Shown piece by piece: positions 26,191-28,158 of a stretch of 64,000 nt of DNA; positions within the stretch are counted from its first letter, which is position 1; each line of letters begins with the position of its first letter. Source of the stretch: an uncultured Bacilli bacterium (GTDB lineage Bacteria; Bacillota_I; Bacilli_A; RF39; UBA660). The position numbers and the translations under genes were made by a program. The stretch lies in the NCBI GenBank assembly GCA_947626595.1, contig CANQST010000003.1, positions 8,396 through 72,395 of the forward strand, written 5' to 3'. The notes below the pieces were generated by a model. The model was given only the letters and a program-made list of their open reading frames with translations, did not search any database and had not been told where the DNA came from.

Positions 26191-28158
26191 ATGAGTAATA
26201 GAAAACAAAAATATATTATAATTGGCGTTTTATGCTTGGTTGTAGTTTGTTTATCGATTGCATATGCTGTATTGTCTGCTAACTTAAGAATTAATGGTAC
26301 AGCTAATGTAGGAGGAGAAAAGTGGAGTGTTGAGTTTGTACAAAAGCAAGCAAAGACTATTCCAAAAGGAAAGGCAGTTTGTGAAATAGGAGATATCACT
26401 GGTACAAGTATAACTAATATGTCAGCAGTATTCCAATTACCAGGAGATAGTTGTACATTTACAATACCAGTAGAAAATACAGGTACTTTGGATGCCAGTT
26501 TAGTTGATGTAGAAGGAAAAGAAACTGCTCTATCTTTTGATGGTAATCAAGACGATATTGCCAAAATAAGCAGTTGGATAACATATGATGTATCATATGG
26601 AAATATAAAGATAGATAACTTAACTAATTTTGATAATATAGACACTTTAGAACCAGGAGAAAGAGAGACGATAACATTAAAAGTAGAGTTTAAGTTAGAA
26701 GCAGAAGAAATACCAAGTGAAGCTGTAACAATAGGAAACATGGGTAGAACATTTAACTTCCAAAATAAAACAAATGAAAGTACTATTACTCCAACTCCAG
26801 ATACAACACCTGTTTATCATGATACAAGTGGAGCAAACACTCCAGTCTTAAGTGATAACATGATACCCGTAGTATATGACGAAACAAGAAAAGAGTGGGT
26901 AAAGCAAGATTTAGATAAAAGTTATGATTACTCACAACAAGTATGGGCCAATGCAGTAACTGTAGTTGAAGATGGAACTCAAACAAGAAGTTATTATAAA
27001 AAAGCAAAGGCTGGAACAGTAATATCAATGGAAGATATAAACACTATGTGGGTATGGATACCAAGGTATTCATATACTATAAAAAGCGAGAATGGTGTCA
27101 ACTATTATGGAAAAGCTAGTACTGAAAATAAAAATCCAACTAAAGCTTTACCGGGAGAAATAGATATCAAGTTTATTCCAGTAACTCAAAATGATAGTGA
27201 AGGTAGTGCCTAATATACAGCCGAAGAAGCAACTGGATGGTATACACCACCAGGATTTAAACTTGGAGATAAAGATTTATCAGGAGTGTGGATAGGAAAG
27301 TTTGAAACAAGTAATGTAGAAAATTGTATTGGGACATCTTCTGCAAATACAGGATGCGATTTAGAAAATCTAACAGCAAAAATCAAGCCAAACGAAACAG
27401 CCTGGAGATATATTAGGGCATCAACACTAGAAATTGTTTCAATGCAATTAACAAATGACAAAAATATTTATGGTTTTGATAATACATATGACAGTCATGC
27501 TTCAAAAAATAAAGAATGGGCTTTAATGGCATATCTAACTCAAAGCAAATATGGAAAATATGGAAGTTCATTATATACTGGAGAAAATAAACAAGTATAC
27601 ATGAATAATTATAGCAAGAACCTAACTGGTTGTTCGTCTGGAACAGGAACAGCAGACACTGTAGAAACTTGTGCATATCGTTATGACGACACAACTTCAC
27701 AAGGAGAAGGAACTGGTTATGCTGGACAAGGAGCAAGTTCAACTGGAAATATATATGGAATTTATGATATCAATGGCGGTGCCTGGGAATACACAATGGG
27801 AATACTTAATAAAATGTCTGGAAACACTGAAGGAACAAATTCAGGATACACAGGAGAACTTACTGATGGAAGTACATATCAAGGCAGAGATTGGCCGGAT
27901 GCCAAATATTATGATGTATATACAAGCAATGATTTAAATACAGCATGTAATGGTTCTCCATGTAAAGGAGAAATTTTAGGTGAAGTTTCAGGTTGGTATA
28001 ATGATAGAACCAATATAGTTGATACAACAAGGCCATGGTTTGTATACAGTGGTAATCACTATAATGGTGTAGCATCGGGAATATTTAGCTATGGTCAGGC
28101 ATACGGCTCAATGAATATAATTTATTCATTTCGTATTGTTTTAACACCAAATAATTAA
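26191..28158 (+). pseudogene. paralog A of the secreted TasA/camelysin-like-N + FGE-sulfatase-like-C family, interrupted by one in-frame TAA (27211-27213)
   Basis: ORFs 26191-27213 and 27286-28158 are in the same frame and separated only by TAA. The readthrough sequence GSA*YTAEEATGW...VWIGKFETS is colinear with paralog B (GSAKYTESQP...IWVAKFETT). Confidence 0.7.

Follow-up and report, generated by a model that had tools for sequence, protein, structure and literature searches.

The window, meaning the whole 64,000-nt stretch of DNA that was analysed, has a G+C content of 28% and carries two related genes in tandem, paralogs A and B, as well as shorter members of the same protein family towards its right end. 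The features considered here are given below by position in the window, strand and description.

25860-26190, + strand: conserved leader upstream of paralog A, containing hairpins, a Shine-Dalgarno-like AGGTGA, the start of an upstream ORF, an (AT)n tract and a terminator-like hairpin
25994-26194, + strand: upstream ORF (uORF), 66 codons in the window, its TGA overlapping the ATG of A as ATGA
26019-26040, + strand: (AT)11 repeat, a candidate phase-variation tract (10 units in contigs L001, L002, L047 and L048)
26097-26121, + strand: weak terminator-like hairpin (AACCAA...TTGGTT, then CTTTTTT), lying within the leader and also within the uORF in its long form
26191-27213, + strand: 5' portion of paralog A (340 codons and the premature TAA), encoding membrane anchor, beta-sandwich and conserved middle module
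27211-27213, + strand: premature stop codon TAA, in the context GCC TAA TAT
27214-28158, + strand: 3' part of paralog A, 314 open codons, encoding an FGE-type C-type-lectin-fold domain
28191-30197, + strand: intact gene of paralog B (668 aa), following A after 32 nt and with its own AGGTGA Shine-Dalgarno site
30212-30234, no strand assigned: hairpin with T-run immediately behind B, where the A-B transcription unit probably ends
59440-60900, + strand: short-type family member, 486 aa, without the beta-sandwich domain (tblastn with A and B, E 1e-33 to 1e-43)
61569-63050, + strand: short-type family member, 493 aa (tblastn)
63109-63139, + strand: candidate promoter-spacing switch, TTGACA, a 19-nt spacer (8 nt plus poly-G(11)) and TATACT

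A third short-type gene starts near 63175, downstream of the poly-G tract at 63123-63133, and reaches 64000, so that at least five family copies, namely A, B and three tandem short-type members at the right window end, lie within 64 kb. Since B has an AGGTGA of its own 7 nt ahead of the ATG and is followed by a hairpin with T-run, A and B look like one transcription unit in which B would still be translatable.

Elsewhere in the window, an ORF of 3,178 aa (11513-21049) is located just upstream of rpsL-rpsG-fusA-tuf. The same protein in L002 has a precomputed Pfam match to Peptidase_M26_C, and the ORF may encode a giant IgA-protease-like surface protein. Searched against Rfam, the whole 64 kb yielded no family at the gathering score, and no tRNA, riboswitch or ribosomal-protein leader was reported despite the str-operon region.

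The in-frame stop codon of paralog A

The reading frame of paralog A is open again from 27214 and next stops at the TAA at 28156-28158; with the premature TAA included, A is a gene of 655 codons (26191-28158). Within its 3' part, an ORF with a GTG start (27286-28158, 290 codons) lies in the same frame as the ORF at 26191-27213. The read-through product of 655 residues was aligned end to end with paralog B at 58% identity (E = 0), which bears out the initial annotation of two ORFs in one frame that are colinear with B through the TAA. The 3' part of A was colinear both with B and with the family proteins P0001-P0008. At the base composition of the window, the chance of 314 open codons is P ~1e-13, and the other two frames of 27214-28155 contain 18 and 32 stops, so the open frame goes far beyond chance. 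Stop codons of the long ORFs in the window (TAA 38, TGA 4, TAG 4) indicate the standard bacterial code. The two 'hypothetical proteins' in the public annotation of this MAG are therefore the halves of one disrupted gene, and the disruption is real.

In the protein alignment the stop is opposite the Lys in 'GSAKYT' of paralog B, and in the DNA alignment TAA 27211-27213 is opposite AAA 29214-29216. Across 60 family members the same column holds Gln in 47 and Lys in 4; at the DNA level, CAA was found in 14 and AAA in 3, with CAA in all of the nearest (A-type) relatives. Because these nearest full-length relatives all have CAA, a C>T transition at a conserved Gln codon (CAA>TAA) is the most likely origin of the stop. 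The AAA noted in the initial annotation is thus correct for paralog B, while as the ancestral codon of A it would imply AAA>TAA, which is less likely. The ancestral codon was deduced from these relatives, and an orthologous tuf-A-B locus of another strain was not found.

Among 5.8 billion clustered proteins, none of full length exceeded 72% identity to A, and both half-products of A formed singleton clusters there. Its closest full-length relatives were P0001, P0002 and P0003 (70-72% identity), encoded at unrelated loci on contigs of ERZ27249386, ERZ27249389 and ERZ27249395 with coverage of 7.6-9.3x. Given the shared sample set, the similar coverage and the unrelated loci, they are probably other paralogs of A's own genome.

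Of the family copies in the fetched loci, about 71 in number, A was the only one with an in-frame stop, and no frameshift was seen in those examined. Paralog A departs from columns conserved at >=85% at seven positions, all seven of them downstream of the stop; among them are R619Y and N459S, the latter at a residue that the other 60 share without exception. With the conservation threshold set to 93%, departures numbered 0/44 upstream vs 4/66 downstream (Fisher p = 0.15, not significant) and A ranked 4th of 61, which amounts to a faint excess of downstream changes at most. With no more than that, and with 314 downstream codons still open, the lesion appears recent and decay barely begun. A recent nonsense mutation, one of the options initially put forward, agrees with the reproducible TAA (see below), the sense codon in relatives and the open downstream frame. 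We consider it probable that paralog A, one of the members of a large and redundant family of membrane-anchored surface proteins, has recently been inactivated or truncated by a C>T change that turned CAA into TAA, and that this is not a programmed switch.

Protein family, effect of the stop and alternative readings

The family comprises more than 1,151 members at E < 1e-10, a lower bound, none of which is named and most of which were recovered in MAGs of uncultured Bacilli from the guts of rabbits and other hosts. Pfam and NCBIfam returned nothing above threshold, and the family is undescribed, having no Pfam, NCBIfam or source name. Its members combine a membrane anchor and a beta-sandwich with a conserved middle module and, as the last domain, an FGE-type C-type-lectin fold. 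In the AF2 model of paralog B (pLDDT 79.5), a transmembrane helix (residues 4-31) and the beta-sandwich (44-192) are followed by a low-confidence linker (195-203) and one large region (205-668). Partial homologues among the matches listed begin at residue 159-247 or at the N-terminus and none near 341, which suggests that residues 205-655 travel as one module. The stop of A falls where the middle module meets the C-terminal domain. For the latter, weak matches to PF03781 were obtained at E <= 1 in 28 of 60 members (profile positions about 82-239), all below the gathering cut-off (best score 22.5 bits vs 23.3).

In E. coli, a TAA with T as the next base terminates strongly, and translation of A would be expected to stop at 27211-27213, where the main stop codon of this genome has a T behind it. 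The cell would then make at most an anchored stub of 340 aa, without the putative ligand-binding domain, so that the stop would remove the probable binding domain of A. The first in-frame start-type codon after the stop is the GTG at 27286, 72 nt further on, with none in 27214-27285, and an AGGA motif stands directly against it; at zero spacing this is not a usable Shine-Dalgarno site. Having no usable ribosome-binding site and no export signal, the remaining 942 nt are most likely untranslated, with decay only just begun. Loss of A would probably be tolerated, since the family has many copies and its members are apparently switched individually by repeat tracts. By itself the TAA would be of little consequence, an ordinary gene-decay event.

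It is unlikely, if worth weighing, that the 340-aa product with its anchor, beta-sandwich and middle module is a functional short surface protein kept by selection. Such a protein would suit a stop that lies near a domain junction and not in the core of the C-type-lectin-fold domain, a beta-sandwich that was modelled with confidence in the AF2 model of the stub, and the absence of any departure from conserved columns upstream of the stop. However, no member ending near the stop was found among the best 120 listed or in 39 loci, and the region 205-655 was always whole. Moreover, compared with the full-length model of B, residues 205-340 fall from ~85 to ~70 pLDDT in the stub, and the strands at 293-299 and 324-329 are lost, which suggests that this segment packs against the missing C-terminal domain.

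The initial annotation also offered a reversible off-state, in which A would be a silent copy repairable by gene conversion, or a donor cassette, as in recombination-based antigenic variation. Judged from their alignments, the family genes are indeed mosaics. The gene at 1074-3062 of L003 matches B at 100% over 240 nt (121-360 in the coordinates of A), with ~85% in the flanks, and resembles A in its 3' half. The paralog most similar to A changes from segment to segment, and the stop is situated at the edge of the most conserved block, common to all copies. Against repair at this site, a repaired allele was present in no assembly, and synonymous codon identity between A and B is flat along the gene (0.6-0.8) and not raised around the stop, so that recent A-B gene conversion there was not supported. 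With 1 of about 71 copies disrupted, the family is also unlike systems that keep arrays of silent cassettes. The context of the stop, GGTAGTGCCTAATATACAGCC, is without a repeat, a scan for simple sequence repeats (SSR) was empty near 27211, and two states of the codon were not seen, TAA being present in six of six near-identical assemblies. A TAA that is the main stop codon and is followed by T, with no repeat at the site and no other copy stopped there, points to a point nonsense mutation and not to a programmed or reversible one. We therefore regard the off-state as distinctly improbable.

Expression of both halves as a split gene, with the 290-aa ORF translated from GTG 27286 or by re-initiation, is more doubtful still. 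The downstream frame is intact and gene callers in ENA, NCBI and Logan annotated the 290-aa ORF, but with AGGA abutting the GTG and the first in-frame start 72 nt past the stop, initiation there would be poorly served. The predicted product also has neither the anchor nor the signal present in every full-length homologue examined, and no family member begins at the position equivalent to 27286. An internal promoter for the 290-aa ORF was considered and rejected: a simple scan gave no promoter-like sites on the + strand between 26466 and 27454, hence none just upstream of 27286, and such sites were no commoner than in shuffled controls.

The TAA at 27211 was observed in 6/6 assemblies: that of the window itself, two metagenome assemblies from ENA and three from Logan at run level. 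Behind them stand no fewer than five samples or runs, and the contig records are of two types (ENA 'NODE' and Logan). Four contigs in public assemblies encode exactly the 340-aa product. Across all 1,968 bases of the gene, TAA included, L001 (ERZ27249395) and L002 (ERZ27249684) do not differ from the window. Over about 8.3 kb, the sole difference between L001 and the window is one AT unit at 26019-26040, and L002 shows the same difference and one SNP at 26129. The Logan contigs L049-L051 (ERR10663787, ERR10663788, ERR10663789) span the stop and have no mismatch to 27015-28397. Differing in (AT)n length and at 26129, the window, L001 and L002 are independent assemblies of slightly different populations. 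Presence in other isolates had been proposed as a check, and the assemblies with the TAA are all ~99.97% identical and of a narrow accession range, so that they speak for reproducibility and not for long-term retention. The TAA is fixed in every available assembly of this strain.

The base error initially allowed for is effectively excluded by the identical TAA in L001, L002, L049-L051 and the window. A sequencing or assembly error, or programmed read-through or recoding, has next to no probability despite the modest coverage of the ENA contigs (8-10x), given the concordance of the six assemblies from different samples and record kinds, the use of TAA to end 38/46 long ORFs, a stop that is conserved in no homologue and unique to A, a TAA-T context that is not leaky, and a window without tRNA and thus without a suppressor tRNA.

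Repeat tracts in leaders, coding sequences and promoters

The reversible switches of the family are likely to be repeat tracts elsewhere, not the TAA. The leader upstream of A (~330 nt) is 82-92% identical to leaders of family genes at unrelated loci (L003 747-1073, L042 6707-7000, L044 6676-7000) and is better conserved than the coding sequence of the genes. All 12 (AT)>=6 tracts in 529 kb of fetched DNA were located in this leader or 5' coding element. With 11 units, as in the window, the ORF from 25994 takes its long form; with 10 units, as in L001 and L002, it stops after 17 codons, 141 nt short. In each of four diverged leader copies, exactly one of the three repeat phases gives a uORF of 54-66 codons ending in the ATGA overlap, and in the other two phases the uORF stops 117-151 nt upstream. 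Indels between leader copies measured 6, 3, 15 and 3 nt, all multiples of three. Purifying selection on the uORF peptide was rejected, as substitutions were spread evenly over codon positions and were mostly nonsynonymous; only the open frame is conserved. The 66-aa and 70-aa uORF products and P0005 gave no database record on look-up.

The hairpin at 26097-26121, a candidate terminator, was present in both the MFE and the consensus folds. The consensus fold of the four leader copies showed no covariation and no compensatory pairs, and the z-score of the whole-leader MFE was only -1.5, so that a structured leader RNA was rejected and the weak terminator-like hairpin remains. A known RNA element was likewise rejected: Rfam gave no hit that reached the gathering threshold anywhere in the window, and none with E <= 1 in 25760-26260. 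The possibility that the region upstream of A is a relic of the 3' end of a family gene was dismissed after tblastn with 61 C-termini (best E = 0.2). In JGI metagenomes, no exact match to a 22-nt core of the leader was found.

Translation of the uORF in one repeat phase would couple expression of the surface-protein gene to the length of the (AT)n tract. Since the uORF peptide is not conserved and the RNA shows no covariation, this coupling is offered as a hypothesis only. More broadly, and tentatively, the A-B unit might be run by a novel repeat switch, in which (AT)n lies in the uORF and one phase is read through the hairpin to the ATGA; together with the poly-G tracts described below, this could form a large contingency repertoire, with the TAA copy decaying or silent and still open to mosaic recombination. 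A literature search found no description of a uORF-based repeat switch overlapping the main start codon.

Contigs L045 and L053 end (position 1) inside or right beside an (AT)n tract. Such ends would be consistent with a mixture of tract lengths in one sample, or with low read coverage there.

In the short-type genes the (AT)n tract lies within the coding sequence, which begins MNKLKNRRN(IY)n and continues into the membrane anchor. One such gene (L045, 2178-3719) has 8 AT units and is in frame, an intact gene of 513 aa, and the same locus in another sample (L044, 8957-9179) has 9 units and is out of frame; compared over 2,349 nt, the two sequences differ by one AT unit alone. A further short-type gene with (AT)n in its coding sequence was found at 8504-9987 of L052. 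In the leader as well as in the 5' coding tracts, the length of (AT)n thus varies between otherwise identical sequences and shifts the frame.

Poly-G tracts of 8-11 were counted 21 times in the 529 kb of fetched DNA, which has ~28% G+C, and always on the strand of the family genes. Upstream of family genes in many MAGs, most of the tracts fall within or next to promoter-like hexamers, and several clearly between -35-like and -10-like hexamers. The sites, one in the window and the rest in 20 other loci, include 63109-63139 of the window, L008 1524, L016 77, L018 5956, L024 5938, L041 5257, L046 96 and 14 more. By their placement these tracts are candidate promoter-spacing phase switches; a literature search for poly-G switches in gut Firmicutes yielded nothing relevant. 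If hypermutable, the tracts would provide cultivation-independent markers of phase variation in gut commensals that can be checked from read data, and the repeat-controlled leader and the promoter poly-G tracts are leads of more interest than the TAA.

Comparison with known systems

The initial label 'TasA-like' did not hold. PF12389 (Peptidase_M73, TasA / camelysin) matched none of 60 members, the fold match is not specific, as dozens of unrelated beta-sandwiches score as well or better, and the closest weak sequence signal in this comparison was DUF11. With FGE / SUMF1 (PF03781), the C-terminal domain of the family shares the FGE-type fold and weak sequence matches; unlike FGE, the family proteins match below threshold and are membrane-anchored and extracellular.

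A C-terminal C-type-lectin fold is also found in variable proteins of diversity-generating retroelements (DGR), such as TaqVP (5vf4), TvpA (2y3c) and Mtd (1yu0) (PMC6328139). DGR involvement was rejected for the window, where no long ORF contains a YxDD motif of a reverse transcriptase and no template repeat, i.e. copy of the 3' ends of the genes, occurs within 64 kb. In contrast to DGR proteins, diversity in the family of A and B would arise from many paralogs and mosaic recombination. The locus therefore introduces an unnamed family of anchored FGE-type C-type-lectin-fold proteins from uncultured gut Bacilli, DGR-like in appearance and apparently diversified by paralogy and mosaic recombination.

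Contingency loci are switched by repeats in different positions, such as the CTCTT repeats in the coding sequence of Neisseria opa and the TA repeats in the promoter of H. influenzae hif. AG repeats in the mod gene of M. mycoides are a further case of SSR phase variation (PMC3498834). Repeat tracts have mutation rates 100-10,000 times higher than the basal one and count among the three recognised mechanisms of phase variation (PMC11868660). A point nonsense codon does not. The off-state proposed in the initial annotation would belong with loci of this type. Like contingency loci, the family of A and B has repeat tracts, (AT)n at 26019-26040 and poly-G at 63123-63133; unlike them, the TAA of A is neither in nor beside a repeat and is constant between assemblies.

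Paralog A resembles nonsense-disrupted paralogs of bacterial surface-protein families, with which it shares a single in-frame stop, an open colinear copy, an adjacent intact paralog and a redundant family. It differs from them in that the family is undescribed and disruption is rare, affecting 1 of about 71 copies.
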